Of a stretch of 64,000 nucleotides of DNA, positions 1-31,784 are shown in pieces. The notes below the pieces were generated by a model. That model was not told the DNA's origin, made no database searches, and saw only the letters and a program-made list of their open reading frames with translations. Made by a program: the position numbers and the translations under genes. The DNA comes from a virus, in IMG/VR virus record IMGVR_UViG_3300048029_000266, positions 3,432 to 67,431 of that record; one strand, 5' to 3'. Within the stretch, counting starts at the first letter, position 1, and every line of letters starts with the position of its first letter.

Positions 1-3000
1 TCATTTGCTACGTTGATTAACTTTTTTATAGACATTGACTCTAAATTTTTCATATTAGACTCAAGCTTTTCAACGTTAGACAAAGAGTTTAAATATCTTT
101 GATACCTATCCTCAAAGTATTGTTTTGTTTTTGCGTCTGATTTATTTACTGCGTCAGAACTATAACCTAAAAATGTAACATATTCATTAAATGTTAAAGT
201 TTTAGTTAGCTCTTGTAAATGATCTTGATAAAACTCTCTTTTATTTAGTTTTAAAGACGCTGTGTTTGTTGGCTCAAAAGATTGTTGTCCTTTCAACTTT
301 TTCTTTTCAGCGACAGTAGTCTGCATTTTTTCTTCATCTTGCTTAAAAAGCTGTGGATGAGCTAACATAAGTTCGTTAGCCTTATCAGCAACAGCAGGAT
401 CTTCTATTGATATATTGTTGTTTATTTCTTTTTGCAATAAATCATCTAATAAATCAAATTTATTTTTAATATAATTTTTTTCAAATAAAGGTGTAAGTGA
501 TTTACCTTTAAATCCTAAACCATTTTTTAAATAATCATACTGTAATAAAGCATCTTTAATTTCTGTAGGCAATAAAGTAAAGTCATTGCGTAAAGCCTGT
601 ATTGTTTCTTCTACAGAAAATTTATTTATTTGATTAGGATTTATTTGAATATTGTTTTCAAAGTAAGGACTACCTTCTATATTGCTAAACAATAGGCTCT
701 TTTTAACAAAGTTTTCTCCAGGCTGTTTGCTATAATCTTCTAATATTTTATATACCTCTGCTACAGTTCTATTATTATAATTAACAGTAGGTATAGCTTC
801 TGCTACTTTAATTAGATAATAATCTTGCATAAGTCTTCTATGCTCATATCTACTAAAGTCTAATTTTATTTTTCTTGTATCTTCTATATACTCAATTACT
901 TGTCTAGCTTCTGGCGTATACATAAACGATGTAGATTTCTGTCTATCTACTTGTTTTTGTAATAAATCTATAGAGTGCTTTACAAGAGGATCTGATCTAA
1001 AATTACCTAATGTGTTAGGATTTATAAAACTACCTTTTTGTTGCTCGTTAATTATATTAATTAATCTTTGAGCATCATGGCCGTGCTGTGGTATCGCTTT
1101 GTGTACAGATAAAGCTTTACCGATACTAAATATTTCATCAGTAAGCTTTTCTGTCTTGTATAACAAATCAAATAACGCAAGCTCACTTTGTTTGTTTTTG
1201 CCTTTTAGTTTTTCTATATTTAAGGTTATATCTCCTGATTTAGCAAAAGACTTAACTATGTTTGTTGCTTCTTTTTTACCAACACCTTTATAGTATTCTT
1301 TATATGCATTAACTACCGCTTGGTTGCTTATGCTTGTAGTCATAATAGACTGATCTCCTCTGTGCTTATCATACAACTTTACAATTGGATGATTCATTAT
1401 AATAGAAATATCTGACAAACTAATACCTAGCCTAGATAGTAATGTAAATTGATTTACTGTGTTTGGTGTAAGCCCTAGCTTATTAGCGTATTGATATTTA
1501 GCATTATCTAAAACAATATTAAGTAACTGCGCTACAGAAAAAGCAAAACCTTCAGGCTTATCTTCGTTATAGATGTCAACTAATGAAGAAACCTCATCAT
1601 ATCCTTTTATATTAATTCCAAATGTAAATCCTACCTTATGACCAGCCATTACATTTAATACTCTTTGCAATGAAGCTATAGTACCAATCATGTTTTGTGC
1701 AGGAACATTATCATTAAAATATTGAGCATCACCTGTTGGCAATAGTTGATTATCCATAACAAGTTTTTTGTTATAGAATGATTCTACTTTATTTATAGCT
1801 TCTTCAGCTATATCCTTAATGTCTATAGGTGTTGTTATTTCTTTATACCTACGACTATCTATTTCAATATCTCCAAGTAACTTTAAATTTAAATCTAATA
1901 ATTCATTAGCAGAAACTTGATAATCTTTCAATAAGTTTGTTTGCACTCTAGCTTCTGTTCCTAGTGGTGATATTTTTGTGCTGCCAGGCACATTGCCTAC
2001 ATGCGAATAATTTAAATATATAGCGTCACCATCTAAATCTGAACCCATAACATTAGATACTTTAGATGGTATTGCTATTGTACTTCTAGCTCCATCAATA
2101 CCTTCTGCTGCAAAACCTTTAACAACAAAAACAACAGACGACTGTTTACCGTGTGCAGGTATACGTGTTCCTAAAACTAAATCTCCAATCTTTACACCAT
2201 CTTTTTTAGCAGATGCTGGTATCATAGCTTCTGATACAACATAATCTTTACCCTGCTCTATTAAAGAATTTAAAGCAGACTTATAAGAATCGCCATCTAC
2301 CTTGTCTACTAAGTCTGATACTTTTATATATGATTGTAAGTTTCTACCTATTGGCGATGTTTGATAAGCTATAGTTCCTCCAAACATTGCTTTAGTTCCA
2401 AATTTAACTAATCTTGAAGCAGCTAATTGCTGTATCATATTATGCAACTGTGGATGTAATCCAGGTGCATACTGAGCCAATGAGGTATTAAGATTTCCAA
2501 AAAACTCTTCACCTATAAGTTTAGTTAAAAACTCTATATCTTTTTTTCTTTCTTCAGCTGTTGATTGATTTGAATAAATTACACCTTTGCCTTTAGAATC
2601 TTCAAACCCTACCATTGCTTTAGCTGCAAGCTCATGCATTCTATTTACCATGTCTTGCTCACCTTCTTCTAGGTTAGTATGATGATGTCCAAATAATTGT
2701 GAAGGCATATGAAAAGAATGTCTTTCCTTATCTAACTCTAATTGTAGTCCAAATCCTTCACCGCTTAATCCTTTCCAACTATCAAATAAACTAACTTCGG
2801 CTTCTCCTGAACTGTTATAAATTTCATCTTGTTTAGATACTACTTCTTCAACACTAAGTTGATCTAAATTATACATATAGTTTTCTCCAGGAGCATAAAC
2901 CTTTAAAGCTGATTTAAAAGTAGCTATTGGTGTAAAGTCATGTAGTTTTCCAGTTACTTCAGGGCCAGCAATAAGCTTTTGTTTTCCAATAGCTTCTTTT

Positions 3001-6000
3001 CTAGCTCTAAGAATGTCTGCTATCTTTTTTATTTCAGGACTAGACTTTTCCATTTCTGGTGTTATTTCGTCTATCTTAAATTTAGCAAACGTTCTTCTAC
3101 CAAATACCTTTTTATTTGGATTGCTTGTCTCAACATAATCATACACATGTTTAAATTGATTACCAACATTGCGCATAGATCCAAACTTCTTTCTAATTAT
3201 ATCGCCATCACCAGGCAACACATAAGCTTGTGCGTCTGTTCCAATAAAACCATCGTGATCAACTATATCTTCAAAAGCAACAAACTCTATAGGAGTGTTT
3301 CTGTCGTGCGGTGTGTGTCTTTTAATTGCACCATCTGCACGTTTTATATAATCTATTTCATTTTTGTGTTCATTGTGATTACCTATAAACATTTGTTGCG
3401 CCATGTATTTGTTTATAGAATAATTTAATATATAGTTTTTTAAATCTATATCTTTTAGTTTCTTGCCTTTCTCGCCTATTAAATCATTTAATTTAATTTG
3501 CTTAGAATCTTTAATTACTTCTGACTTAAACTTTTTAGAATATTGATTAAGTCCAGATAAAGCAAAACCATCTTTTGTTTTAATTATTTTAAATGGATTT
3601 ACTCTTGTACCATCAGCATATTTTGCCTCATTATACCCTCCATTATACGCCATTTCTAACAGCTCTTGTCTTTGTTCTGCTGTTTGAGCTACAGGCGTTT
3701 TAATGTAATATCTTCTTTTAGCTGCACCAAATACAGCAATAGCTTGATCATAATAAGCTAGCTCACCTCTTTTATATCTAGATACTGAATACAAAAATTC
3801 ATTAAAGTCTGTTAACATAAGCTCTAAGCTATCCATCTTAACATACTTTCTATTTCTTCTTGTGTCTTGCTGTGATGCTTGTGGTGTAGAAAACACACCA
3901 GACAACATGCTAATATTATGCTCTTTACCAGTACCATCTCCTAACATAGCAGCATATATATTAGTAAAACCTTTTTCATTAAAAAATCCTAGGTCTTCCA
4001 TAAGCTGATAGTATGCATTAATATCTTTTTCTGATAAATCTGCATAATTCTCATTTTTGTTATGTATAGAATTTTCTTTGTTTATTGTTAAGGTTGGATT
4101 CAAAGATACATCATTAACTTGTGTTATATAATTTTTAGCTCTTGACTGTACAATTAAATCAGCTAACAAATTATCAAAACCATTAGATATTTGTAAATAG
4201 TATCTGCCTTTATATTGTTTTACAAAATCTTCTCTATTGTTTTGTATTAACTGAGATATAGAGACATATCTTTTGTTTTTATAGTTATATACGTTACCTG
4301 TTTCAGACAGCTTTCTTTTATCTACAAACTGCCAATAAGATGAGTCTCCATATATAATAGATAATGTTTCTATAATATTTTCATTGTTACGTATATTGTC
4401 TATTAAAGACTTTAATTGCTCATTTGTAGTGCCTTTTCTTTTAAACCATCTTTCATTAGCTTCTCTTGTCATAGAGCTTTGCCATCTGGCCTCATCTGTG
4501 CTTAGTGAAACTCCAGGCACCCAGGTAGTAACGCCATTGTCTCCTCTCATAAAACCAACTTCTTTCATGGTTTCTATTTTTTTGTTAGCAAAGTCTATAG
4601 ACATCTCTAACAAAAGAGCATCAACTAAAGATTCTTTTTTTAGTTTATTATTTAAAAACTTAACAAATCTAACGACAGAAGGATTTTCGCTTTCAGTTAC
4701 ATTTGTAACGAAGGTAAAAGTATTGCCTTTTTTTGTTTTTTGTCCCAACGAGTGTAACTCTGATAATAGATCTTTTACATTTACAGGGTTTTTGTCGTTC
4801 TTTTTACTTTCTTCAAAAGAGTAAGCCTGTATTAGTTTTGATGTTGTTTCTCCAAACAACGTTTCTTCTTGATCGTAGATATTACCTTTGTCGTTTTCTT
4901 CAGCTACCTGCTCAGCTTCCCTATTAAAACTAAACTCTAAAGAGTCGTCAGATCTTTCTCCTTGATTAAGTCTCTTATCTACAGACTTTATTAAATCATC
5001 AACTATCTTTTGATACTCTTTGAAAGTAACTCTTTCTACCTGTGATCTAATCTTTCTCAGTAAAGTATCGTGCTCCATAGATGTTACTTCAAATGGAGGT
5101 GTTTGTTTTTGCGTATTATATGTTTTGTAATTTTGTTTATATATTTCTTGAGCAATTGACTGTACGGCTTCTTCACCTTTTTTACCTTTAGATAAAACTT
5201 GTTGTTGTATAATATTAAACAAACCCTTTGTAGATATTACGTCAAACTTAGCTTGCTTTAGCATAGCTTTTTTGCTATAGGAGTTTTGCTTAAATTGATT
5301 TTCTACATTTAAAGTATTAAAATTGTTTTGAATGTACGTCATCATTTGATCGTAATCCATTAGCCTTGTTTCAGGTATAACCTGCTCTACAGCAGATTTT
5401 GCTTCTTCACGGCTAGCTAGTCCAGCAACTCTTTTATATAGCCTTTTAAGTATACTTTCGTATTTCTGTGCGTCTGTTTTATTTTCAATAACATTTGTTA
5501 TTCCACCTTTTCTATTAAAGTCTTCATTAGAATATGCAAACGCCTCTTCAAGCAAACCAAACTGTGATTCATCATTCAATCTTTTTATAACACCTTCAGA
5601 AGAAAGTTGTGTAAACAAAGACTGTACAGCATTTTTATATTGCAATGTATTACCAGCTTCAGCTGCATTTACAATAGAGTCTAATAAAGAAGATAGAGGT
5701 GAGTCTACATCATTTCTTCTGTTTTCTAAAAAGTCAGAAAGTATATCTCCACCTGTTACAAAACTTTTACCCATTTTATATCTTGTCAATAATGGATAAT
5801 TATATTGTATGTTATCAATTAACTTAACTAAATTACCATTGGGTGTAAGTATTCTTCTTTTTATTAGTAATGTATTTAATCTTTTTTGTAAAGACGTTCC
5901 AGCTATAGACTGATAGTATGGGTGTGATAGCTCGTGTATTAAATCTGTTTGCATAGCAGATCTTGGATTTACCAATATAGTACTACTAAAAAACACAGCG

Positions 6001-8855
6001 GCAGCTGGTGCTCCAAACCCTTCTATAAGCTGTCTATTAGCAAATTCTATTCTTGTTCCTGGAAACTTTTCTTCTAGTGCAGCTCGGAGATAACCTCTTA
6101 TTAATGATCCTTTTTCATCAACCCTAGTAATATATTTTTGTACAGGTTTTCTTGCATCAGAATCTTTTCTGTTAGCAAACCTTTTTACATATTTATTAAT
6201 AAAATCAGTATACTTTTTTGGAGTGTCGGTGTCAGAGGTTTCTTTAGGCTTTACTTTGTCTGATTCTTGCTTTGCTGTTTTTTTACTTTTTTTTTTAGGT
6301 TTTTCTACAACCTCAGCCTCTTGAACCTCTTCTGTTGTTGCGGTTTGCGCATCTACTTTACGAGCTGTTTCAATATCTTCTTCAGATACTTTTTGTCTTC
6401 TAGCTTCTACTTTTTCTGTAAGCTCATCAACCTTTTTAGTTAATGAGTTGGCTATATCCACAAATTTTTCTGTTATTGTACCATTAAGTTTACCTTCTAC
6501 AAACTCAGTAATCTTATCCAAAACTTCACCGCTTGCTCCTTTAAGATCTGTTTTTTTAATCTTGTTAACTATCTCTTTTGCTTTTTTCTTAATCTGCTCT
6601 TTAGTCAAATTTCTGTTGCCCAATTCTTCTTTAGCAGCATTTATCTCTCTTTCTAAAGCTTGAGATGTTTTTGGGGCGTTTTGTGATAGATATTTTTTTA
6701 CATAATTTTTGCCTTGTGTAAATTGATCTTGTAAAAAGTTTTTAAGATTTAATGCTCCTTCAGATGTTACAATATCTTTTGCAGTCTGTTTAAAACCTTT
6801 TTCTTTAACAGTTTCTACAGCTTTGGTTACCCCTTCTTTAACAGCAGCAGCACCTTCTTTAACAGCTGTTGCAGCTCTAGATATTAATCCAGGCTTTTCT
6901 AATTCAGCTTTTACTCCTTCAGATGTAAACTCACTAAACTGATCTGGAGTTAATCCTTTAGATGATCTTTTAACTCTTGTCTTATCTTTTGTAAGTTTAC
7001 CCAACCTGACTGTAGCCAAGTTTTCAATAAGTTCTTCTTGTTGTTGAATTTCTTCGTTATATATTTGAACTTCATTATCAAAATTATTATTAATTTCTTC
7101 CTGGGCTTGTTTAAGCTTTACAGGATCTTTTATATTTTCACTAGCTAAATCTAGCTCTTGTTGTCTCTGCTCATTAGATCTTTCTATTGCAGCTTTTCTT
7201 TCAGCTATTTCTACTCTAGCTAAAAATATTTGTCTTTTACCAGCTTGACTTAAAGAATTACCTTTATGTGTAGACTCATATATATCTTCATATTGCTCAA
7301 TAGCTTCTGTAATTTGCTGACCTACTTCTTCTCTCATTTGTCCTTCAGCAACCATTCTTTCGACTCTAGATTTAGCTAATTGAGCATTACCATTTTCATC
7401 AATAACAGTATATGCTATAATATCTTTACGCATAGCTTGAGCTTGTTCAAACTCATTTAAATCCATTAGATCACCAAGTCTTCTTCTTTGCTCTTGTAAT
7501 TGATAATCTCTTTCGGCAATAGCATCAACATAACCCCCTCTAGAACCCATAGCACTACCTAAAGCAAATGCACTAACTCTTGTTTGTAGCATTTCAGGAC
7601 TTTTAAAAAAGTCTGTATAAGACATGTAATCTAATCCTTTCTTTTCAGCAATAGCTCTATTTTTTATCCACTCTTGATATACCTCTTGATATTGCTCTGC
7701 CGTACCTTCAATTGCACCTGTAGCACCAGCCTGTATAAAAGGAGCTATTTTTTGTCCAAAAGGGATTGGTTTTGGTAAATTTCTAAAACCCCTAGCCAAT
7801 CTACCTAATCCTCCAAATACTAAACCAAACTGTGCTATATCTGCTAAAACCCAATTAGTATTATCTCTCCATACCTGTGATGCTGCCGCTTGTGCTTCTT
7901 GTGGAGTAAGTCCATCTGCTAATGCTTGTTGCATAGTTTCTCCTGCAACAAAAGCACCTTCAGCAAAGTTACCACCAATACCACCACCTATACTTGTTGT
8001 TACTATATCGATGCCTTTACGCATTTCCATTTTTGCAAACTCTTCACCTTTTTGCAAACCTCTTCTTTTAGCTTGTCGTTTTGTAGCTTTAGATATTACA
8101 GGTTTATATAATTTTTCACCTACACCCAAGGTTCTTGCCCCCTTGTAAACTTTATTTGAATTTAACAATAGTCTTGTTCCTCTAGCAGCTACACCAGCAG
8201 GTAAAAAGAAAGACATTGAATATGGTAATAATTTTGCTACATCTGTTGCCCAAAATCTTGGACTAGCTAATTGTCCCCAACCAACACCCTTTAATTCGTC
8301 TGCAACAAATATTTGGTTTTTATTTGATATTTCTGATCCTTTTCTTTGCAGATAGTCACCAATTGTAGTGTTTTGGTCTACATCTGGATCCCATGGAGTT
8401 ACAACAGCTTTCAAGAACTCAAATGTATCTCCAGTTCCTTTTATTAAATCCCCTGTACCTGCTTCAAGGCTTTGTTGTAACATAGAGTCAGATCCTAAAA
8501 ATCCAGAAATAGCAGATCCTATACCCATACCTACAGCTCCGCCCGCTGTGCCTCCTAATGCAGTACCTAAAACTGTACCTCCTAAAGTAGCTAAATCTTG
8601 TGGAGCTACTACAGGGCCAGCACCTGCTGTAGGGCTTACACCTACCCCTGTAGGTCTCATGCCTAATTGCTCTTGCTGTAATCTATTTGCTTCTTGTGAT
8701 TGTTGTTGTCCAGCATATAAAGATAATGCTTTATCATATTCTGTTCCCTGCTGTGATAATAATGATAAAAACGCATCAGTTTCATTTGCGCTAGTCATTC
8801 CAGACTCGTATTCATTTATGCCTTCTGAAGGTGTTTGCTCGTTTATATCTGCCAT
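1..8855 (-). CDS. Giant virion-packaged two-barrel DNA-dependent RNA polymerase polyprotein (crAss/phi14:2 gp66-like), >2950 aa, 3' end beyond the window; includes a zincin-like HExxH domain
   Basis: Absent from the ORF track, consistent with no stop inside the window. ATG at 8855 overlaps the upstream stop; the frame was spot-checked open at several points down to base 3. Hand-translated motifs: TDAQAY (~3225-3240), FKSALKV (~2900-2920), GTRIPAHGKQS (~2140-2172), catalytic GSDLDGD (DLDGD 2025-2039), VLDNAK (~1497-1514), HELSH (5922-5936) with EEAFA (~5535-5550). It follows the cargo genes as in crAss-like phages. Confidence 0.9.
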   Translation of the reverse strand, partial: MADINEQTPSEGINEYESGMTSANETDAFLSLLSQQGTEYDKALSLYAGQQQSQEANRLQQEQLGMRPTGVGVSPTAGAGPVVAPQDLATLGGTVLGTALGGTAGGAVGMGIGSAISGFLGSDSMLQQSLEAGTGDLIKGTGDTFEFLKAVVTPWDPDVDQNTTIGDYLQRKGSEISNKNQIFVADELKGVGWGQLASPRFWATDVAKLLPYSMSFFLPAGVAARGTRLLLNSNKVYKGARTLGVGEKLYKPVISKATKRQAKRRGLQKGEEFAKMEMRKGIDIVTTSIGGGIGGNFAEGAFVAGETMQQALADGLTPQEAQAAASQVWRDNTNWVLADIAQFGLVFGGLGRLARGFRNLPKPIPFGQKIAPFIQAGATGAIEGTAEQYQEVYQEWIKNRAIAEKKGLDYMSYTDFFKSPEMLQTRVSAFALGSAMGSRGGYVDAIAERDYQLQEQRRRLGDLMDLNEFEQAQAMRKDIIAYTVIDENGNAQLAKSRVERMVAEGQMREEVGQQITEAIEQYEDIYESTHKGNSLSQAGKRQIFLARVEIAERKAAIERSNEQRQQELDLASENIKDPVKLKQAQEEINNNFDNEVQIYNEEIQQQEELIENLATVRLGKLTKDKTRVKRSSKGLTPDQFSEFTSEGVKAELEKPGLISRAATAVKEGAAAVKEGVTKAVETVKEKGFKQTAKDIVTSEGALNLKNFLQDQFTQGKNYVKKYLSQNAPKTSQALEREINAAKEELGNRNLTKEQIKKKAKEIVNKIKKTDLKGASGEVLDKITEFVEGKLNGTITEKFVDIANSLTKKVDELTEKVEARRQKVSEEDIETARKVDAQTATTEEVQEAEVVEKPKKKSKKTAKQESDKVKPKETSDTDTPKKYTDFINKYVKRFANRKDSDARKPVQKYITRVDEKGSLIRGYLRAALEEKFPGTRIEFANRQLIEGFGAPAAAVFFSSTILVNPRSAMQTDLIHELSHPYYQSIAGTSLQKRLNTLLIKRRILTPNGNLVKLIDNIQYNYPLLTRYKMGKSFVTGGDILSDFLENRRNDVDSPLSSLLDSIVNAAEAGNTLQYKNAVQSLFTQLSSEGVIKRLNDESQFGLLEEAFAYSNEDFNRKGGITNVIENKTDAQKYESILKRLYKRVAGLASREEAKSAVEQVIPETRLMDYDQMMTYIQNNFNTLNVENQFKQNSYSKKAMLKQAKFDVISTKGLFNIIQQQVLSKGKKGEEAVQSIAQEIYKQNYKTYNTQKQTPPFEVTSMEHDTLLRKIRSQVERVTFKEYQKIVDDLIKSVDKRLNQGERSDDSLEFSFNREAEQVAEENDKGNIYDQEETLFGETTSKLIQAYSFEESKKNDKNPVNVKDLLSELHSLGQKTKKGNTFTFVTNVTESENPSVVRFVKFLNNKLKKESLVDALLLEMSIDFANKKIETMKEVGFMRGDNGVTTWVPGVSLSTDEARWQSSMTREANERWFKRKGTTNEQLKSLIDNIRNNENIIETLSIIYGDSSYWQFVDKRKLSETGNVYNYKNKRYVSISQLIQNNREDFVKQYKGRYYLQISNGFDNLLADLIVQSRAKNYITQVNDVSLNPTLTINKENSIHNKNENYADLSEKDINAYYQLMEDLGFFNEKGFTNIYAAMLGDGTGKEHNISMLSGVFSTPQASQQDTRRNRKYVKMDSLELMLTDFNEFLYSVSRYKRGELAYYDQAIAVFGAAKRRYYIKTPVAQTAEQRQELLEMAYNGGYNEAKYADGTRVNPFKIIKTKDGFALSGLNQYSKKFKSEVIKDSKQIKLNDLIGEKGKKLKDIDLKNYILNYSINKYMAQQMFIGNHNEHKNEIDYIKRADGAIKRHTPHDRNTPIEFVAFEDIVDHDGFIGTDAQAYVLPGDGDIIRKKFGSMRNVGNQFKHVYDYVETSNPNKKVFGRRTFAKFKIDEITPEMEKSSPEIKKIADILRARKEAIGKQKLIAGPEVTGKLHDFTPIATFKSALKVYAPGENYMYNLDQLSVEEVVSKQDEIYNSSGEAEVSLFDSWKGLSGEGFGLQLELDKERHSFHMPSQLFGHHHTNLEEGEQDMVNRMHELAAKAMVGFEDSKGKGVIYSNQSTAEERKKDIEFLTKLIGEEFFGNLNTSLAQYAPGLHPQLHNMIQQLAASRLVKFGTKAMFGGTIAYQTSPIGRNLQSYIKVSDLVDKVDGDSYKSALNSLIEQGKDYVVSEAMIPASAKKDGVKIGDLVLGTRIPAHGKQSSVVFVVKGFAAEGIDGARSTIAIPSKVSNVMGSDLDGDAIYLNYSHVGNVPGSTKISPLGTEARVQTNLLKDYQVSANELLDLNLKLLGDIEIDSRRYKEITTPIDIKDIAEEAINKVESFYNKKLVMDNQLLPTGDAQYFNDNVPAQNMIGTIASLQRVLNVMAGHKVGFTFGINIKGYDEVSSLVDIYNEDKPEGFAFSVAQLLNIVLDNAKYQYANKLGLTPNTVNQFTLLSRLGISLSDISIIMNHPIVKLYDKHRGDQSIMTTSISNQAVVNAYKEYYKGVGKKEATNIVKSFAKSGDITLNIEKLKGKNKQSELALFDLLYKTEKLTDEIFSIGKALSVHKAIPQHGHDAQRLINIINEQQKGSFINPNTLGNFRSDPLVKHSIDLLQKQVDRQKSTSFMYTPEARQVIEYIEDTRKIKLDFSRYEHRRLMQDYYLIKVAEAIPTVNYNNRTVAEVYKILEDYSKQPGENFVKKSLLFSNIEGSPYFENNIQINPNQINKFSVEETIQALRNDFTLLPTEIKDALLQYDYLKNGLGFKGKSLTPLFEKNYIKNKFDLLDDLLQKEINNNISIEDPAVADKANELMLAHPQLFKQDEEKMQTTVAEKKKLKGQQSFEPTNTASLKLNKREFYQDHLQELTKTLTFNEYVTFLGYSSDAVNKSDAKTKQYFEDRYQRYLNSLSNVEKLESNMKNLESMSIKKLINVAN

Positions 8856-10819
8856 TATTTAAAATATTTAGCCCACAATCTAAATCTAGACTTTTTTTCT
8901 TCAAACTCTTTTTTGCTTAATGTTTCTTTATAATATTCCATTAAAGCTTTAGTATTACCTGATTGATATATTCTATAAAGGTTTGGTGATGTATCGGCTA
9001 ATCTACTAAAATTATTTAAAACATTAGAAACATTACCAGAAAAATCTTGTGCGTTTTGACCTTGACCTCTACCTAATTTTTGAGACATATCAAAAATATC
9101 TGCCATAACAAATGGATTCATAGAAGAAGGTATTTTATTTGCAGCAAAAGTATAAGCTGCTGGAGCCTGATATGCATTAAATAATACTTGAACTCCTTGA
9201 TCTCCTGTAGCGTAAATATTATCTAATGTTCCAGCAACTTGTGCTTGAACTTCTGCTTTTCTTTTTCTAGTTTCAGTTTCAGCATTTATTCTTGCTCTTT
9301 CATTTTTAGCGGTAGATAAATCTTTATCAGCCTGTTCGTCTTTTAAGTTTGTTAAAACTTTATTGTCACCTAAATTTATTTCTTTATAGTAAACATCGTC
9401 AATAAATTCTTCTTCTACTAGCTGCATTATATAGGCAGGTTTGTATGTAACTGACTCTAAATCTGCTTTACCTTTTAATTGTTTGTTTATAAACTTAGCT
9501 CTATCGGTAGGATCTAAATCTTTGACTCCTTTTGTTAAAAGCATTTCCTTTACCTCTCCAGTATATAAATCCTTATAAACAGCTTTAGCTCCTAAATAAA
9601 TACCATTTATTCTCATATCATCAGCTGTACGATCTAAATATCCCCCTTCTTCAGCCATAGATTCTCCTTTATAATCAAACATTGTAGACATCATGTTTTC
9701 ATTCATTCTTAAAACATAATTTCCTTTCCTATCAATATAATAATCATCTGGTATGCCAGGAGAGCTATCATTTCTTAATGCTGCATCTATTACTCTAAAC
9801 TCCATTTCTTTGTCGTTTACAAATAATTGACCTGCAACATCTGCAACCCTACTATCTTTAGTTTCTATGTTGCTACTTTTTTCATCAATACTAAAGTTTG
9901 TTTCATAAAATGCTAATAGTCCATTGTCTGAAACATACTTTGCATACCCTCCATTTTCTATAATTTCAGCCGCTCTAAGATCTGGTATTATCTGTTCTTG
10001 ACCTTTCATTAGCTGTTGAGACAATGTTGTTTCAACATCTTTTAAACCAAACTTAATACTTCTATCAAAATCTTTTGTTTTTCCTAATTTTCTATCTACC
10101 CAACCATCAGCATTTATTATGCTAGGATTATTAATTGCATAATTATAAGCTTCGTTTTGTTTATCAGTATCATCACCAGCTACAAAATATGCCCAATCAG
10201 CCGCTAATATGTGTTTGTTATTGTAAATGTAATCATCAGTATTTATAGGTGTTTCTCTATCATACTCATCAATAAAGGTTAAATCTATTTCTCCGTCTAA
10301 TGATCCTCTCCATTCAACTTTATCAGTCACTTCTTTTTGCCAATTGTTAAAAGAGTTTCTTGTTCTTTCATTAACTAAATGACCTTTACCATCAGCATCT
10401 GCTTGTATAATAGCAGCTATTGCTATTTGGTTTTGCTTCATTTGATAAATTTTATCATTATTTAAAAGTTGATATTGATAATTTCTTAAATCTTCATCTA
10501 TACCTAATCTTTTAGCTTTTTGATAACCACCAGCCTTTCTTATTTTTTCGTTTATAGGAGTTAATAAATCACTAGACATTTCTTGTAAATCAAGCAAATC
10601 TTTTCGTCTTGTATTTTTTCCTGTAGTTAGCTCTACAGCTGTTTGATACGATAAGTCAATTAATTGTTGACTGTCTTCTTGTTCTTTTTGTTCAATTGCT
10701 TGTTGTTGTCTTTGTAAATTATATATTTTTTCTAAATACATAATTTCAGCATTACGCTGTGACTTCATGTTAGTTGAGCCAAAAAAACCACTTAATGCAT
10801 TATATCCGTATGCGTCCAT
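8855..10819 (-). CDS. Putative virion cargo/ejection protein (654 aa)
   Basis: Long ORF with N-terminal Gln-rich coiled coil, located between the lysozyme-cargo gene and RNAP; function inferred from synteny only. Confidence 0.55.
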   Translation of the reverse strand: MDAYGYNALSGFFGSTNMKSQRNAEIMYLEKIYNLQRQQQAIEQKEQEDSQQLIDLSYQTAVELTTGKNTRRKDLLDLQEMSSDLLTPINEKIRKAGGYQKAKRLGIDEDLRNYQYQLLNNDKIYQMKQNQIAIAAIIQADADGKGHLVNERTRNSFNNWQKEVTDKVEWRGSLDGEIDLTFIDEYDRETPINTDDYIYNNKHILAADWAYFVAGDDTDKQNEAYNYAINNPSIINADGWVDRKLGKTKDFDRSIKFGLKDVETTLSQQLMKGQEQIIPDLRAAEIIENGGYAKYVSDNGLLAFYETNFSIDEKSSNIETKDSRVADVAGQLFVNDKEMEFRVIDAALRNDSSPGIPDDYYIDRKGNYVLRMNENMMSTMFDYKGESMAEEGGYLDRTADDMRINGIYLGAKAVYKDLYTGEVKEMLLTKGVKDLDPTDRAKFINKQLKGKADLESVTYKPAYIMQLVEEEFIDDVYYKEINLGDNKVLTNLKDEQADKDLSTAKNERARINAETETRKRKAEVQAQVAGTLDNIYATGDQGVQVLFNAYQAPAAYTFAANKIPSSMNPFVMADIFDMSQKLGRGQGQNAQDFSGNVSNVLNNFSRLADTSPNLYRIYQSGNTKALMEYYKETLSKKEFEEKKSRFRLWAKYFK

Positions 10820-13068
10820 TATTGTCCCTGATTGTTATTATTAGTAACTATATTTGGCGTAGAAAGATCTGTATGTCCAGTAGTCATTCCTTGTAGTAAT
10901 GAAGATTTATACATATTTACTAAAGGAGCCAATCTACGAGCTTCAGCTCTTTCTTGTAAAGATTGAAATACTTTACCTGCAAAATCTGATGCGCCTTTCT
11001 TTTTTTGTAACTCTAACTGTAATTCTTCAGCTCTTTCAGCTTTGCTTTTGTTTAAATTGTATTCTTCAGAAAAAGACAATGCTTTTGTATACTTGTCCAT
11101 ATTAGCTCTATTAAGCTCAGCATCTTTAGCGGCAAAGTCTAATAAAGCAGACTGTCTTTGGCTGTCTAAAACTCCAGACATAGCTAAAAACTTAGCTCTA
11201 TCTCCAGCGGTACCTCTTACTGCGTTTTCAATTCCTTTGCCATATGCAGCATCTATTTCTGCTCTAGCTCTTTGTTTTTCATCAGGACTAAAACCCATCT
11301 TAGAAAGCTCTCTAACTTGATTTAAATGCTGTTTAAACATATCAGAAAGGCCTTCGTATTCTACAGGCTTAATCTCTTTCATTGCTTCTGCATATGCTTT
11401 TTTACCAAGAGCTGACATAACCAAATCATCTTGATTATTTATGTTTTGTCTTATATTGTTTACAATGCCTAATCCCTGTTGCAATACATTTCCTATATCT
11501 CCTAAATTGTCCATAAATGTAGGAGGAGTGTCTTTATTTGTATTGTCGGTATTTATTACATTTTCCTGCTCTTCAACTACAGGTTCTTCAGTTACAGGTT
11601 CTTCATCTACATCCTGTATTGTAGCCTGAACTATATCTCCTTCATCATTTTCCCACGTTGCAACACCTTGATTGATAGTTGCGTCATCTGGTATATCACT
11701 TGTGTTTAAAACGCCTAAATCTATAGTTTCTTGTACATTTTCTTCTTCTTCACCTATTTCTTCAACCTCTTCTAAGGCATCATCAATCAAGTCTTCTTCG
11801 CTTGGTGTAGGATTGTCATCATCAGCAGATATAATATTATTAACTATTTCTAGTCTTCTGTCTTCGTATTCTTCATCTGTAGGTCTTGTAAGATTATATT
11901 CTTGTTCAATCTCACTCATTCTCTCTTCATTATTTCTAATCTCTGTAGCGAATACATTAGGCATGTCTGCGGGTTTATAAGCAGCTCTTAATGTTTTATT
12001 TCTTTTTATAAGCTTTTGATATTCTTTAGCGTCCTCACCTCTTTTAATTATTGCAGGTCTTTCAGCTTCATCTTCTTCTTGTCTTTGTCTTTCTTCTTCT
12101 TCTCTAAGTGCAGCTTCACCTTCTTCATCTGTAGGTTGATCAACAATGTTTCCATCAGCATCTAATACTTGTGGTTGTGGCGGATCAGATGGTTCTATTG
12201 TTCTTCCTTGATTAACATATGTTGTATAATTCATTTCATCAACATCTTCAACCTCTTCATAATTTGGCGTAGGTTCAGGCTCTCCTTCTGGTACAGGCAC
12301 TCTAACAACAACCATTCTACCATCTTTTTGTCTTACCTCAAAACCATCTCCATATGCAGTTTGCGTATATCTTTCAAACTCTTCAATATTTTCGTTTGTA
12401 TTATCAGAAGCATATATCTCTTCAACAACCTCTTCTCCTTCTGCAACTGGATCTAAATTTTGAATTACTCTTCCTCCGCTTACTTCTACATCTTCTAAAA
12501 CAGTAACGTCTTCTGGATTGGTTGAAGCTCCAGAACCAGATCTTAATCCATCAGCAGCTCTTTTATTTCTGTTTGTTATTCCTGTGTAACCCTCATCACC
12601 TTCTTGTACAACTTTGCCTCCAACTTTTGCAAGCCTTCCATTATTGCCGCCATTTTCAATTAAGTCTGCTGCTTCATCAATTTTACCTTCATTAATTAAC
12701 TCAATAACACCACTTCTTTTGACATTTCCTCTACCATTTCTATAGTATAAATCAACAATAGAATTATATTGTTCTTCAGTTAAGTTTTCATTTTTTATGT
12801 CTTTATTAACTTGATCAATATATTCTTGAGTAACCAATTGCGCAATTTCATCTGCCTCTTCCCTTGTCATTTTTTTGCCAGTTGGCGTTCCATCTGCTTT
12901 CCAGTATTCTTTCCAATTTGGTATTCCATTTTTACCTGTCAATGAATATTTAGTATAACCATATCCTATAGTAGGCGTACCACCTTGATCAAGGTACATA
13001 TCTTCACGAAAACCTTCGTTTTTAAATATTTTATCTCTTAGTGCTGTATTAAAAGTAGCTGCTGCCAT
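10819..13068 (-). CDS. Virion cargo protein with N-terminal GH24 (T4/phage-type) lysozyme domain, acidic linker and helical C-terminus (749 aa)
   Basis: NEGFREDMYLDQGGTPTIGYG gives the E-x8-D-x5-T catalytic triad; later IVDLYYRNG and GITNRNKR match the GH24 C-terminal pattern. Confidence 0.8.
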   Translation of the reverse strand: MAAATFNTALRDKIFKNEGFREDMYLDQGGTPTIGYGYTKYSLTGKNGIPNWKEYWKADGTPTGKKMTREEADEIAQLVTQEYIDQVNKDIKNENLTEEQYNSIVDLYYRNGRGNVKRSGVIELINEGKIDEAADLIENGGNNGRLAKVGGKVVQEGDEGYTGITNRNKRAADGLRSGSGASTNPEDVTVLEDVEVSGGRVIQNLDPVAEGEEVVEEIYASDNTNENIEEFERYTQTAYGDGFEVRQKDGRMVVVRVPVPEGEPEPTPNYEEVEDVDEMNYTTYVNQGRTIEPSDPPQPQVLDADGNIVDQPTDEEGEAALREEEERQRQEEDEAERPAIIKRGEDAKEYQKLIKRNKTLRAAYKPADMPNVFATEIRNNEERMSEIEQEYNLTRPTDEEYEDRRLEIVNNIISADDDNPTPSEEDLIDDALEEVEEIGEEEENVQETIDLGVLNTSDIPDDATINQGVATWENDEGDIVQATIQDVDEEPVTEEPVVEEQENVINTDNTNKDTPPTFMDNLGDIGNVLQQGLGIVNNIRQNINNQDDLVMSALGKKAYAEAMKEIKPVEYEGLSDMFKQHLNQVRELSKMGFSPDEKQRARAEIDAAYGKGIENAVRGTAGDRAKFLAMSGVLDSQRQSALLDFAAKDAELNRANMDKYTKALSFSEEYNLNKSKAERAEELQLELQKKKGASDFAGKVFQSLQERAEARRLAPLVNMYKSSLLQGMTTGHTDLSTPNIVTNNNNQGQ

Positions 13069-26764: not shown

Positions 26765-28327
26765 TTATGATGCAGATAAGATTCCGCAAGATAATGGGTT
26801 ACGAACGATAATTCCAGACTCAGAAAGAACGTGAGCTTCAAATTTATCATCAGCGTTTGCAGCCATCATAGATGATTGATCGTATGGATTAATCATACCA
26901 GCTACATACTTTTTGATAAAGCTTCTGTTAGTTCCTTCAGCTCCTTTAGTTACTAACTCAATGTTAGAAACACCAGAAGTCTTACCGAAATCTAAGAATA
27001 CCATTTTAGCAGACTCTTTAAGTCTGTTGTCACCAAACGCATTAGTACCTGAAGTACTACTGTGTAGGTTGTTGTCATCAAATACTGGGCAATAAGCAAC
27101 AGTTAATTTGTTACCTAAAGCTTCGTAAGATGTGAAGTTAGCACCTAAAGCAACATCACCGCCAACACCAGCAAATGAACCACCTGTCATTGCACCAGAA
27201 GGAGCAACTAATAGATCTTTCATAGCTTTGTGGAATGCTAATCTACCTTCAGTACCTGTAAACACAACCCACTCGTTACCTTCAGCATTTGTTGCATTTA
27301 AGCTTAACTTAGCTAAGAACTCAGTAATGATTTCTTCAGTAAGTGCGCCAGCAGTATAAGATGCTTGGTTAGATGAGTCGATTTGAGCTAATAGACCATC
27401 ACCTGTGATGATGTTATTAGTTTGTCCACCAACAGCAGCACCAGTCAACGTAGAAGTCAATCCAGCTGGACGTGATACTCCACTTTCGTGTACAGACTTA
27501 CGACCATACCATCTTTGAAGCTCTTGCTGATACATGTACTCATCCATCATCATTTGCTCTTTAGTAAAGTACCATAATCTGTGACCATTGTTTTCAATCC
27601 ACATAATATCTGTAATATCCTTACCTGTAACAGAAATCTTCTTACGCATTGTAGTAAGATAATTTTTGTATGTAGATGGGAATACGTAGTTTTCACCTAC
27701 GTCAGATCCTAATGAACCATTAGGGAATGCAGAACCGATTGAAGCAAAGATTGCACCGCTAGAAAGGTCAGTAACCTGTAATGGTTTAGCAGCACCATCA
27801 ATCATTTCAACTTTAACAATTTTAGATGCAGATGTAACAGCTACACCTGTACCTGATGCACTAATAGATCCAGAATCAGTTAAGTCAGTCATAATTAAAC
27901 CAACAGCACCTGACTGGAAACGAATCATGTCATACTTATTTAAGAAGTTTGATGTGTATGATTCACCATCAGCAATAATGTAAACAACATCACCATTTGC
28001 ATCTGCACTGTTAAATGCACCGCTAGTAGCAGCAGCAGCGCCACTACCAGAATCAGCAGCAACGAATGAAGATCCATCAGTAGAAATCCAACCAGCTGAA
28101 TAAGAAGGTGTGTTGTAACGTCCCATAACTTTCCACTCGAATGAGTTATCGCCTAGGACTTTTTCACTTGCAAAGCGACCTGTTCTTTCTAAAAGATATG
28201 TCGCTGAATAACGAGGATATTGTTGAATCAACGTTCTTGCAATCTCTGGGTATTGCAATAGTGCTGTATTCAAACTATTCTCAGGAGTTGTTCCAGAACC
28301 GTAAGTTCCAGTATAAACTTTAGCCAT
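26765..28327 (-). CDS. Major capsid protein (crAss-like HK97 fold), 520 aa
   Basis: NYLTTMRK...ITGDGLLAQI...VFTGTEG...GIIVRNP pattern; follows portal and scaffold. Confidence 0.88.
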   Translation of the reverse strand: MAKVYTGTYGSGTTPENSLNTALLQYPEIARTLIQQYPRYSATYLLERTGRFASEKVLGDNSFEWKVMGRYNTPSYSAGWISTDGSSFVAADSGSGAAAATSGAFNSADANGDVVYIIADGESYTSNFLNKYDMIRFQSGAVGLIMTDLTDSGSISASGTGVAVTSASKIVKVEMIDGAAKPLQVTDLSSGAIFASIGSAFPNGSLGSDVGENYVFPSTYKNYLTTMRKKISVTGKDITDIMWIENNGHRLWYFTKEQMMMDEYMYQQELQRWYGRKSVHESGVSRPAGLTSTLTGAAVGGQTNNIITGDGLLAQIDSSNQASYTAGALTEEIITEFLAKLSLNATNAEGNEWVVFTGTEGRLAFHKAMKDLLVAPSGAMTGGSFAGVGGDVALGANFTSYEALGNKLTVAYCPVFDDNNLHSSTSGTNAFGDNRLKESAKMVFLDFGKTSGVSNIELVTKGAEGTNRSFIKKYVAGMINPYDQSSMMAANADDKFEAHVLSESGIIVRNPLSCGILSAS

Positions 28328-28418
28328 TTTTAAATAATTTTAAATTAAACAATTTTTAACACTATTTTAATCCAGAGTAATGTACGTAACTTGTAGGCTT
28401 TGCCTTTTGTTTTGTAAG

Positions 28419-29444
28419 TTACTCTCTCATAAACGCAGCAGGATCAAAACCAGATGATTTTATTTTAGTCGTAGGTCTTGATTTGCCACTAAGGCTAGGA
28501 GAAGTAATGTCATTTAATATTTTAGCTTTACCATCTTCTAAACCCTGGGAGCGTAAGATCTTAGCAAACTTGTCTTTGAACAGCATAAACATCGCTACCT
28601 CTGAAGCATTGTCATGGGATTTCCAGATGTCCTCGGCCATTTTACCAGACGTTATATATTTGTAAGCCTCTTTCGCTTGATCTTTAGTCACACTACCACC
28701 CATAAATGTTCCAAGTGATTTTAAGTGACCTTGTAATTCTTTTTTATTTCTCTCTACTTTTTCTTTAGCAGACATTTCTTCTTGCTGTTTTTCTTTAAAA
28801 AACTTTTGTTTTTCTTGTTCTACAGCTGCATTAAGTTGTCTTCTAATTCTAAATGCTTCTCTTTTTAAAACACCAGAGTCTTCCATTTTATCTAAAGCCT
28901 CTTCAATTTCAAAGTCTTCCATTCCATCAGTTTTCATTTCTGCTGCAATCAGCTCTCTGTCATTGTATTTTAAATATCCATTTATTTTATCAATAACCTC
29001 GTTTTTTGGCTGCTCAATAAATGGAGAATTTAAAGCTTGTATAATATCTTCTTTAGTTGCAGCTTCTAATCCAAGCTCTTTTGCAACCTTTATCCAATCT
29101 AATTTTCCAGATTCTTCAACACTTTCATTTTCCTCTGTAGACTTTGCTTGAGTAGCCTCGTCCCAATCTTCTTCTGGTGTTTTAATTTCTGGAGCTTCTT
29201 TTTTTTCTGACTCAATGTCATTCCAATTAAAAGGCTTGTCAGAATCCTCTTCTGTACCCTCAGTATTTTCTTCAACTTTTTCAGCTGCTTCTTCATTATA
29301 CTTACCTTGAAATTGTTCCATCATTTGATCTGTTGCAAACGCTAATGGATCAAATGCTTTTTCTTCTGTTGTTTCTGTTGTAGATTCTACGCTTAGGTTT
29401 TCTGAAGCTTCTTCTACTAAGTTTGATTGTTGTTCTTCTGCCAT
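28419..29444 (-). CDS. Putative capsid scaffolding/assembly protein (acidic, coiled coil)
   Basis: Very acidic N-terminus, helical; between portal and MCP. Confidence 0.6.
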   Translation of the reverse strand: MAEEQQSNLVEEASENLSVESTTETTEEKAFDPLAFATDQMMEQFQGKYNEEAAEKVEENTEGTEEDSDKPFNWNDIESEKKEAPEIKTPEEDWDEATQAKSTEENESVEESGKLDWIKVAKELGLEAATKEDIIQALNSPFIEQPKNEVIDKINGYLKYNDRELIAAEMKTDGMEDFEIEEALDKMEDSGVLKREAFRIRRQLNAAVEQEKQKFFKEKQQEEMSAKEKVERNKKELQGHLKSLGTFMGGSVTKDQAKEAYKYITSGKMAEDIWKSHDNASEVAMFMLFKDKFAKILRSQGLEDGKAKILNDITSPSLSGKSRPTTKIKSSGFDPAAFMRE

Positions 29445-29481
29445 AATTTAATAAAATTTTGTTCCCTAATATGCAAATATA

Positions 29482-31782
29482 CTAAGATTTTTTAATTATA
29501 TCTTGAATTTTCTGTTTACGCTCTGGTTTAATAGTTTCGTTTTGTGATTCTCTTTGAGCTAAACTATCGGCCTCTTTAGCATCCTGTTCAGCTTTCTTTT
29601 GTAAGAATATTTGCTTGTTTTTTACAGTATGTGATACATCAGACGTTTCTCTAGCTAAATCATCTTTCATATCAGCAATTTGTAAATCAGTTTCAGCTTG
29701 TATTCTAGCAACCTCAACTTTTCCTTGATTTTTAACTTGTTCAAGTTGTACTTGTCTTTCAAACTCAGCTTGTTGTTGCTCAGCTTGTGCTTGTAACATT
29801 GCTTGCTGTTGTTGCGCTTGTTCAGCTTGCTCTTTTTTAATTTCTTCCATAGCTCTTTCGAGTATATGCTCTGCTTCTGTAAAGGTATCAGCTTTAAGAA
29901 CCTTAATAATATCTAAAAGAGTAGCTTGACCTCCTTGTACAGCAGCCTGTGCAATACTTTGTAGCTGTTGACGCATAGCATCATCTTTACCAGCATCACC
30001 TATAAATATACCATAATCTTGTAGTGATATATCTGGGAATACAGATAAAAATTTATAAGCTCCATCTCCTAATATATAAGAAGCCTTTTTACCGTTAGAC
30101 CAACAAAGCTTCATAAGATTACATACTTTCTCAAATACGCGTTTCTTAACCATATTGTGAGAATAGAATAAACTTTCTGTAATTGTAGCTGATTGTACAA
30201 CACTACGCTGTACATTACCCACATATTCGTACTGACCAACAGCACCTTCTCTTTGCGGAGTAACACCAGATATTTGTCCAGCAGTTTGCTCAAGCATTAA
30301 TTTAAGATTGATAAGTTGTTGAACAGAATTAGAAAGCGTAAAGTCAATTTGTTGAAATTGATTAAATGATGATAACTGATTACCTTCTTCTTTAGAGTTA
30401 ATAGGTATAATACCATCTGTCTTTAAATGATAAAGTACAGTTTGCATATCCATACCTAAGTTTGTAGGTAATTGAGATACATCATACACAACAGCTTTAC
30501 CACCAGACCTAGCCATAGCTAATTCTATTTGATACATTACAATATTGTAAAGCATTTGTATATTTTTTAGTAAATCTACCATAGAAACACTCTTTCCTGT
30601 AGAATTATTTCTAACACAACCTACATATGACAAAGATGTAGAACCAGCATCATCTACTGATCTTACTTGGTTAGGTCTTCTTCTAGCTCTAGCTAAAATC
30701 TTACCGCCAATTTTAGTAGCCTCCCATATATCGTCTACATATCTAGTTTTTATCTTTTCATTCTTTCTAGGCTTGTAATCATCTGCAACCTGCTTCATAA
30801 AAGGCTTTTCAGGATTAAATTTATTTTCTGATAATTTAAATCTTAGTGCTTTTATAGATTTCCATTCTACAGATACTACTCTAATCTTTACCTCTTGCCC
30901 TTCTTGATACTCTACCCAATCAAAAGGATCATTGTATCTAGCTAAATCATCATATCCACCTATTTGATACATAGCCGACAACTCTTCTAGGTCTTCACGA
31001 TTAAGCTCATCTCTAAATTCATCTAATATTTCGTGATACGATAAATATCTTTCTTCACCTACCCATGATGAGTCATCTAAATAATCTGATGTAGCATTAA
31101 TTTCAAATACACAATTTCTTGGATCTACTCTTCTAACATAAGGATCTCCGTTGTGATCATATATTTTATAAAACTCTTTACCTGTAACTAGCATGTCTCT
31201 ATAACCTTCTTTGAATAAATCTCTATAGTTATATTTAGACATAAGATACTCTAATCCATCTTGTGCTGTTTCTTCGACCATTTCTCTGAAATTATATTTC
31301 ATATATAGGTCTATGTCTTCTGGAACCTCCATTTCTGTTACAGGAGGTAGCTCAACACCTGTTGTTTGCGCAAATTCTTTATGTATTTCGTCAGTAAGGT
31401 CTTTCATAATTAAATTAACCTTAACATCTTCTTTTCTTAGCACAGCTTCTTTATTTGTTGTACTAACTTTAACATCTAAAGGTCTTCTAAGATCTTCACC
31501 TACTAACAAATCAATCTTTGGCGATATTATAGGATAGTTTACTAAACGAGCTGGGTATGCCATTCCGTATTGCTCTGTTATGTATTTAAAATCGTCTAAT
31601 TCTAAATCACCATTGTATATATTATAATTTTGTACGTCATTTATTCTTGACGTTTTATATGGAGACTCAGTATAAGACATATACGAAACTACTGCGTCTA
31701 CCCATTGATTACACCATTCATCATTTTTCTCTGACTCTAAAACAAATTGAGCTGGAAAAGAAGATTGACTATTTTTATACAT
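29482..31782 (-). CDS. Portal protein (crAss-like)
   Basis: NYPIISPKIDLLVGE, IWEATKIG, ISGVTPQREG and a Gln-rich C-terminal coil; follows TerL. Confidence 0.9.
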   Translation of the reverse strand: MYKNSQSSFPAQFVLESEKNDEWCNQWVDAVVSYMSYTESPYKTSRINDVQNYNIYNGDLELDDFKYITEQYGMAYPARLVNYPIISPKIDLLVGEDLRRPLDVKVSTTNKEAVLRKEDVKVNLIMKDLTDEIHKEFAQTTGVELPPVTEMEVPEDIDLYMKYNFREMVEETAQDGLEYLMSKYNYRDLFKEGYRDMLVTGKEFYKIYDHNGDPYVRRVDPRNCVFEINATSDYLDDSSWVGEERYLSYHEILDEFRDELNREDLEELSAMYQIGGYDDLARYNDPFDWVEYQEGQEVKIRVVSVEWKSIKALRFKLSENKFNPEKPFMKQVADDYKPRKNEKIKTRYVDDIWEATKIGGKILARARRRPNQVRSVDDAGSTSLSYVGCVRNNSTGKSVSMVDLLKNIQMLYNIVMYQIELAMARSGGKAVVYDVSQLPTNLGMDMQTVLYHLKTDGIIPINSKEEGNQLSSFNQFQQIDFTLSNSVQQLINLKLMLEQTAGQISGVTPQREGAVGQYEYVGNVQRSVVQSATITESLFYSHNMVKKRVFEKVCNLMKLCWSNGKKASYILGDGAYKFLSVFPDISLQDYGIFIGDAGKDDAMRQQLQSIAQAAVQGGQATLLDIIKVLKADTFTEAEHILERAMEEIKKEQAEQAQQQQAMLQAQAEQQQAEFERQVQLEQVKNQGKVEVARIQAETDLQIADMKDDLARETSDVSHTVKNKQIFLQKKAEQDAKEADSLAQRESQNETIKPERKQKIQDIIKKS

Positions 31783-31784
31783 AA

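Follow-up and report, generated by a model that had tools for sequence, protein, structure and literature searches.

The 64,000-nucleotide stretch of viral DNA analyzed here (the window; positions 3,432 to 67,431 of IMG/VR record IMGVR_UViG_3300048029_000266) carries the larger part of a giant minus-strand gene whose product, judged by sequence profiles and a structure model, is a homologue of phi14:2 gp66, the crAss-type single-chain, two-barrel virion RNA polymerase. In the catalytic loop, at the fourth position of the aspartate motif where gp66 has isoleucine, the enzyme has glycine (G2276), and it shares this residue with a large group of phage enzymes that lies apart from those of the recognized Crassvirales families. 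Very likely the frame encodes a virion-packaged, DNA-dependent RNA polymerase of a complete crAss-like phage, with a glycine loop that is shared by a sister clade and is most simply read as ancestral.

In the window the gene appears as an open reading frame (ORF) of 2951 codons that begins with ATG, has no internal stop in translation, and is open at its 3' end, which the ORF listing places at the window edge. The window corresponds to C1:3432-67431 of contig G000 (67,431 bp), in which the full frame extends to 3668 codons (contig positions 1280-12286, 16.3% of the genome). The frequency of stop codons on this strand is 0.073, so that an open run of 3668 codons would arise by chance with a probability of about 1e-120, and a chance origin is excluded. 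The start ATG shares one base with the TAA stop of the upstream gene (TAATG). Pfam and PHROGs gave no match in the window part of the giant protein, nor in P0002, a full-length protein 99% identical to it, which would account for the lack of annotation. A reading made from the letters without database searches (the sequence-only reading) had called attention to a hidden frame of more than 2950 codons that contained the motifs GTRIPAHG, GSDLDGD, and VLDNAK. The frame is as long and as free of stops as it had claimed, and all three motifs lie where it had put them, DLDGD at exactly positions 2025-2039.

A tblastn search of 50,697 phage records with the giant protein returned a single match, the 4620-aa protein of the Intestiviridae phage cr271_1 (E value, 7e-6). 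In the pairwise alignment GTRIPAHGKQS...IPSKVSNVMGSDLDGDAIY stands opposite GYRIPTEGKQS...VPDDWVSQTGSDFDIDSVY, with GSDLDGD facing GSDFDID. Residues 1950-2650 were matched by 31 proteins, 2489-4499 aa long, in a metagenome protein collection, and in IMG/VR relatives are encoded at 68 loci. Two alignments were made from these metagenome and IMG/VR relatives: A1, with 26 full-length rows, and A2, with 38 rows covering residues 1700-2800. The A2 profile matched gp66 in the PDB (6vr4_A) with an E value of 2e-15 (59.2 bits) in separate stretches, the first barrel and the segment from the connector to the trigger loop, that together covered both barrels, and the A1 hidden Markov model (HMM) scored 35.6 bits against gp66. 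The next relevant PDB match of the A2 profile was the P23-45 tape-measure polymerase (E value, 0.075-0.13); phmmer of the giant protein itself against the PDB gave nothing useful.

The fold points the same way. An AlphaFold2 model of residues 1700-2800, computed with A2, reached a predicted local distance difference test score (pLDDT) of 86.7 and a predicted template modeling score (pTM) of 0.83. Foldseek placed gp66 first (E value, 7.8e-22; query TM-score [TMq], 0.63), followed by QDE-1 (4.7e-5) and RDR2 (4.2e-4). With VIA-align the model superposed on residues 654-1977 of gp66 at Z 21.9 over 926 residues (root mean square deviation, 4.2; 14% identity), followed by maize RDR2 (Z 14.7, 445 residues), QDE-1 (Z 14.4, 500 residues), phage P74 gp62 (Z 13.3), and the multisubunit polymerases at about Z 10. 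When the invariant positions of A2 were paired with gp66 under HMM guidance, 17 of the 21 were identical (K893, R894, D962, K1027, K1065, Q1100, Q1116, G1235, R1322, P1324, G1359, D1361, D1363, D1365, N1478, G1548, and D1612 in gp66 numbering), three differed, including G2276 opposite I1364, and one was unaligned. The aspartates D2273, D2275, and D2277, each invariant in all 38 A2 rows, correspond to D1361, D1363, and D1365. VLDNAK aligns with the trigger-loop sequence FVDNAK of gp66 (residues 1610-1615), the correspondence of K2453 being read from the gp66 alignment alone; the RDR2 preprint equates the gp66 lysine, K1615, with RDR2 K923 and QDE-1 K1119. Both the profile and the model thus bear out the proposal of the sequence-only reading that the frame is a giant crAss-type virion RNA polymerase, and the structure comparison that it had suggested recovered the two-barrel fold, with gp66 best and RDR2 and QDE-1 next.

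Every row of A1 and all 38 rows of A2 have glycine as the fourth motif residue, while core identity within the clade falls to 18-34%. DxDGD occurs in 30 of the 31 first homologues and in 55 of 56 IMG/VR ORF fragments matching the core, several of which show a single contig more than once; the 56th has its start downstream of the motif. When A2 was scanned against 1.84 billion representatives, 2148 proteins scored at an E value of ≤1e-3 and 218 at ≤1e-30. Among the best 150 of the 2148, window included, which are those nearest the query, 137 stretches covered the motif, and the fourth position was Gly in 106, Val in 20, Ile in 8, and Ala in 3. Three proteins of the glycine clade (P0078, P0159, and P0170) have DxDAD, with separate origins on the tree. 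The named Crassvirales (Steigviridae, Suoliviridae, and Intestiviridae) have DFDID or DFDVD in 12 of 14 cases, the other two being unread because of TAG recoding (cr125_1) or a split gene (cr108_1).

According to the gp66 preprint, the DFDID loop of gp66 is in a conformation incompatible with catalysis, the closest structure is that of QDE-1, and the fourth position is Ile or Val in all crAss-like polymerases, a feature that it ties to the non-canonical loop. The existence of the DxDGD clade runs against that claim of universality; Ile or Val describes the subgroup that has been studied and defines neither the fold nor the activity. The sequence-only reading was right that glycine is kept in the Asp-triad loop where gp66 has isoleucine, and half right in calling GSDLDGD the exact motif of the eukaryotic RDR polymerases. 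DLDGD does recur as residues 830-834 of RDR2 (RDR2 preprint), but the second motif position in the clade may be L, N, Y, F, H, D, K, M, or Q, and the GS prefix is common to the Ile/Val-type enzymes (GSDFDID, GSDFDVD). Since the second position varies so freely, the exact identity with the plant sequence is probably a coincidence, and only the glycine is clade-wide.

For a polymerase tree, 197 sequences were collected; the motif could be placed in 183, at least 800 residues surrounded it in 169, and 144 remained after removal of near duplicates. The tree was computed with FastTree from 793 columns, without the fourth column of the motif, and is unrooted. All 39 Ile/Val rows, including 12 named ICTV Crassvirales, fell on one side of a single branch (Shimodaira-Hasegawa [SH]-like support, 97), and the 105 rows on the other side, with the window deep among them, comprised 102 with Gly and 3 with Ala. 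A quick IQ-TREE run (LG+C20) on 42 sampled rows repeated the Ile/Val split (16 of the 42 rows; SH approximate likelihood ratio test [SH-aLRT], 94), again without a root. The separate branch that the sequence-only reading had envisaged apart from gp66-type enzymes is therefore present in both trees, and the window enzyme is not placed among ordinary crAss polymerases, though DxDGD is the rule within its own clade. To our knowledge, all other two-barrel polymerases have Gly in the loop. Because of this, and because the Ile/Val rows lie on one side of a single branch, glycine is most simply read as ancestral and Ile/Val as acquired once.

The large terminase (TerL) agrees with this placement. TerL frames were taken from 13 named phages and 22 glycine-clade contigs, with cr118_1 (a fragment only) and cr125_1 (TAG recoding) left out; four Intestiviridae had no match at 1e-5, and the family is represented by a single row. 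In a quick tree of 35 rows, a branch (SH-aLRT, 81) separated the 23 glycine-clade phages from nine ICTV rows and FpV4, which joined cr11_1; MW202828 and Gundel_1 fell outside. Taken together, the polymerase tree and, as an indication only, the TerL tree suggest that the lineage of the window phage is sister to the recognized Crassvirales families. The TerL of the window matches 124 phage records at about 22-31% identity, the named ones being uncultured crAss-like phages, IAS virus, and phages of Bacteroides, Flavobacterium, Cellulophaga, Azobacteroides, and Tenacibaculum; wherever a host is named, it is a phage of Bacteroidota. With the A2 profile, Flavobacterium phage FpV4, Tenacibaculum phage Gundel_1, and MW202828 yielded no polymerase, despite their related TerL, and among the cultured relatives only the Azobacteroides phage gave a match. 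Combined with the tblastn search of phage records, this profile search revealed no cultured or GenBank phage with a glycine-type enzyme, although records very near the window may have lain outside the search. Within the clade, TerL identity to the window is 62-91% in 19 of 22 full-length relatives and 32-34% in the other three, and the cores of the same phages are 20-61% identical (L028, 82% for TerL versus 34% for the core; L067, 80% versus 32%), which suggests that the packaging enzyme changes far more slowly than the polymerase.

The core occupies the middle of a polyprotein that may be divided roughly into an N-terminal HExxH part, the polymerase at about residues 1100-3000, and a hydrophobic, conserved C-terminal part. 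Since core residues 1700-2800 lie opposite gp66 654-1977, the equivalent of gp66 would span about residues 1050-3000. The first 879 residues begin as a Gly/Ala-rich, hydrophobic region and continue as a long charged helical stretch. Next comes HELSH, a candidate zincin-type metallopeptidase site; all 26 full-length relatives retain its H974, E975, and H978, and E1103/E1104 are conserved. Pfam searches of 19 family members found no relevant domain in this region; a language-model Atlas links it to LPD23/LPD1 polyvalent-protein domains (score, 0.95; 178 shared features), a lead only. A model of residues 880-1720 (pLDDT, 68.6) resembles gp66 residues 230-674 weakly (Z 3.8), and a second weak profile match maps the region otherwise. 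Just before the weak alignment that runs from gp66 residue 230 onward is an acidic, low-confidence stretch (residues 1298-1335, window 4851-4964; 12 D/E and 3 K/R), roughly where gp66 carries its cleft-blocking domain, a mapping that is uncertain. The last 670 residues are hydrophobic, with many invariant Gly and aromatic positions. Apart from the catalytic site, conservation is highest in the C-terminal 700 residues (within 2952-3668), where runs of hydrophobic, helix-like sequence occur together with the pattern [GA][VAI]GN[IV][LA][AIV]GK and which could be a membrane-inserting ejection part.

In phi14:2, the virion contains gp65, gp66, and gp67; certain phages have the three fused into a polyprotein, which is probably cleaved, and gp65 holds a zincin-like protease domain (gp66 preprint). 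By analogy, the three parts of the giant protein may be the respective counterparts of gp67, gp66, and gp65; weak matches of its N-terminal region to gp67 and of its C-terminal part to gp65 are collinear with that order. On the model of gp66, the polyprotein would be made late, packed in the capsid, and ejected with the DNA, perhaps being cut into pieces for which the invariant HExxH is a candidate processing site, and the polymerase part would transcribe early genes from the incoming genome. Catalysis would proceed through the canonical two-metal Asp triad, the bridge helix, and the trigger-loop lysine. The glycine loop may bind Mg canonically, without the distortion of the gp66 loop, and would be expected to be ready for catalysis because Gly can take a turn that Ile cannot, as the gp66 preprint argues. 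The sequence-only reading had also suggested that the enzyme may be regulated differently from gp66, which is a conjecture. The pointer to presence in the virion is the position of the gene in the structural block, and it is the only one.

Other explanations for the glycine and for the core deserve consideration. The residue could be a secondary reversal or a neutral variant within an ordinary crAss polymerase family, with no effect on the loop or its regulation. We think this unlikely: the residue is fixed in every A2 row even where core identity is so low, a single change suffices for the split, the TerL tree agrees with it, the gp66 preprint ties Ile to the non-canonical loop of gp66, and the RDR2 preprint reports that the substitution G833E abolishes RDR2 function. 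The unrooted polymerase tree speaks in favor of such a reversal, as do the Ala that replaces Gly in 3 of 105 clade rows, which indicates that the position tolerates some change, and the remaining catalytic residues, which are the same as those of gp66. A more radical alternative, that the giant protein serves mainly in ejection or structure and its polymerase-like core is inactive, is highly improbable. It could draw on the large non-polymerase parts on both sides of the core, on the strong conservation of the hydrophobic C-terminal part, and on the loss of the motif in one homologue. However, the Asp triad, R-x-P, the barrel-1 Lys/Arg, and trigger-loop residues D2450 and K2453 are all conserved, and D2450 and the other invariants of A2 hold across 38 sequences with a mean column identity of 27%, which argues for selection on catalysis.

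The possibility that the phage branch is specifically closer to RDR/QDE-1 than gp66 is, perhaps with RNA as template, and represents the donor lineage, bears on the suggestion of the sequence-only reading that the enzyme belongs to a branch nearer the eukaryotic RNA-dependent RNA polymerases (RdRPs). The shared DLDGD and the rank of RDR2 and QDE-1 as the next-best structures after gp66 would be in keeping with it, and so would a trace of the Pfam RdRP family PF05183 in the glycine clade: sub-threshold scores in two of five other glycine-clade genomes (19.6 and 15.2 bits against a cut-off of 23.8), both of the DFDGD type, compared with no match in five Ile/Val-type genomes, and a match in 1 of the 38 A2 members (E value, 0.0018). 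In the window phage itself, PF05183 has no match either in P0001, the window part of the giant protein (E values up to 1), or in the whole contig (E values up to 10), and membership in that family was rejected, there being no match above the cut-off even though the DbDGD loop (as DLDGD) is present. The weak matches elsewhere are confined to profile positions 379-503, around the catalytic loop, and fit an ancestral loop kept by the glycine clade better than they fit a relative of the RdRPs. Moreover, gp66 is far nearer, superposing over 926 residues as opposed to 445-500 for the RNAi polymerases; the gp66 preprint gives 479 residues for gp66 on QDE-1, similar to the extent found here; and the second motif position is variable across the clade. 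The suggestion of a special closeness to the eukaryotic enzymes was therefore not upheld, and we regard such a donor branch as quite unlikely.

The explanation that we favor, a virion polymerase with an ancestral glycine loop, has points that weigh against it as well. One homologue, P0019 (2667 aa), has an internal deletion that removes the whole GSDLDGD block with its flanks intact, and could reflect either faulty assembly or a copy that is defective. The ratio of Gly to Ile and Val among the best 150 matches is that of the query's own neighborhood and is no census. That glycine is ancestral is drawn from outgroup parsimony alone, on an unrooted tree, and the quick TerL tree has long branches, an outgroup that is not monophyletic, and small sampling. 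Analogy is the source of everything said about location in the virion, ejection, template, and cleavage. The match of the N-terminal region to gp67 (10.7 bits) and that of the C-terminal part to gp65 (independent E value, 0.037-0.13) are both weak, and the database searched for them held four sequences. In phi14:2 the HExxH (HEIMH) is in gp65, downstream of the polymerase, whereas here it lies upstream, and the parts may accordingly not correspond one to one. Finally, the model of the HExxH region matched no peptidase in Foldseek or VIA; its best Foldseek E value was 0.019 (to gp66), and its VIA scores were Z 5.7 and, searched widely, 6.2.

The setting of the gene is that of a crAss-like phage (Table 1). 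Contig G000 has an exact 68-bp terminal repeat, is classed by IMG/VR as having direct terminal repeats, and has a CheckV completeness of 100. As part of the overall explanation, the source phage is in all likelihood a complete crAss-like podophage whose genome of 67.4 kb carries 68-bp direct terminal repeats. The large genes from window position 3 to about 39,000 are all codirectional, the giant gene being the last of the structural block, and a crAss-type virion module of muzzle, portal, head protein, and TerL is identified by PF25731, phrog_6547, phrog_6681, and phrog_11589. A replication block that includes a DnaB-like helicase occupies the opposite strand, and no tRNA genes were found in the window. 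The gene of the lysozyme-domain protein is located in the run of cargo genes between the muzzle and the polymerase, so that its product is more probably ejected to degrade the wall than used as the lysis endolysin. Records of the glycine clade rated 100% complete by CheckV are 65-82 kb long, and the ICTV Crassvirales records with which they were compared are about 90-104 kb. At least one homologue of the giant protein is of Tara ocean source.

Table 1. Features of the giant gene and its neighbors (window coordinates; residues are those of the giant protein)
Feature	Residues	Window position	Strand	Basis or remark
Giant virion RNA polymerase polyprotein (putative), first 2951 of 3668 codons	1-2951	3..8855	-	ORF and translation
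Same, remaining 717 codons	2952-3668	contig, left of window		Same frame
N-terminal region	1-879	6219..8855	-
HELSH, candidate zincin-type metallopeptidase site	974-978	5922..5936	-	HExxH pattern
Polymerase core: two double-psi beta-barrels, connector, bridge helix, trigger loop	1700-2800	456..3758	-	Model and profile
GTRIPAHG	2229-2236	2148-2171	-	R2231 and P2233 invariant; gp66 R1322 and P1324
VMGSDLDGDAIY	2269-2280		-	Block around catalytic motif
Asp triad DLDGD (D2273, D2275, G2276, D2277)	2273-2277	2025-2039	-	gp66 D1361-F-D-I-D1365
VLDNAK, trigger-loop motif	2448-2453	1497-1514	-	K2453 opposite gp66 K1615 in FVDNAK
654-aa protein		8855..10819	-	Codirectional, directly upstream of giant gene; no family match
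749-aa protein, N-terminal phage lysozyme domain		10819..13068	-	PF00959, E value 3e-16; phrog_7
Crassvirus muzzle protein, 1880 aa		15583..21225	-	PF25731 crAss_MUZ, E value 2.4e-122; phrog_28748
crAss-type head/packaging run		26765..33605	-	PHROGs
Major head protein		26765-28327	-	phrog_11589
341-aa ORF		28419-29444	-	No family match
Portal		29482-31782	-	phrog_6547, 1e-120
Large terminase (TerL)		31785-33605	-	phrog_6681, 5e-89

Marine Crassvirales clades (PMC11502894) and fused giant crAss polymerases (gp66 preprint) are already known. A literature search found no paper that notes a glycine-type crAss polymerase or a DxDGD sister clade; Yutin et al. 2018, the Nature version of Drobysheva et al., and published supplementary alignments were outside that search, and prior notice is possible. 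The finding matters because gp66 is the only characterized crAss polymerase, and its loop, as crystallized, is unable to bind Mg (gp66 preprint). A sister clade with glycine implies that this feature of the gp66 loop is not family-wide, and the clade, which accounts for 100 or more clusters (50% identity) in the set of nearest matches, provides natural comparators for the idea of self-inhibition. It also removes one difficulty for a phage origin of the eukaryotic RNAi polymerases, because a donor of the glycine type needs no reversal, and it flags an abundant uncultured lineage whose largest gene is invisible to Pfam and PHROGs. A bolder proposal, which we hold to be doubtful, is that the glycine enzymes represent the ancestral crAss-type virion polymerase, with a canonical Mg loop and without the self-inhibition by loop distortion of gp66, that they are the nearest living phage relatives of the progenitor of RNAi polymerases, and that the Ile/Val loop was a later regulatory invention of gut and Cellulophaga crassviruses.

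Compared with known systems, the enzyme is most like gp66 of phi14:2. Both are single chains with two double-psi barrels, a connector, a bridge helix, and a trigger loop, both have R-x-P, the three aspartates, and the trigger-loop DNAK, and in both cases the gene comes last among the large genes of a virion module of crAss type. They differ in the fourth motif residue (Ile in gp66, Gly here), are only 13-14% identical, and are unequal in length, gp66 being a separate protein of 2180 residues and the present one a fusion of 3668; HExxH is in the downstream gp65 in one and upstream in the other, and the genomes measure 100 kb and 67 kb. The giant polymerases of gut Crassvirales (cr271_1, with 4620 aa, crAss002, and the p-crAssphage type) are likewise giant fused frames with a GxRIPxxGKQS...GSDxDxD block, but they have DFDID or DFDVD and occupy the other side of the tree, and only that of cr271_1 was found by tblastn.

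The eukaryotic RDR2 and QDE-1 have the single-chain, two-barrel fold in common with the window enzyme (Z 14-15), together with the DbDGD loop (DLDGD in RDR2) and a Lys at the trigger-loop position. In contrast, identity is 10-12% over 445-500 residues, PF05183 has no match, and the context here is that of a phage virion. P23-45 gp96 and the gp64-type phage polymerases (PDB 8H2M, 8F5M, and 8F72) are virion or non-virion single-chain, two-barrel enzymes with DFDGD, which VIA places at Z 11-13; unlike the window enzyme, which they approach in profile searches only at E values of 0.075-0.13, they belong to a different virion context, with fusion to the tape measure protein.

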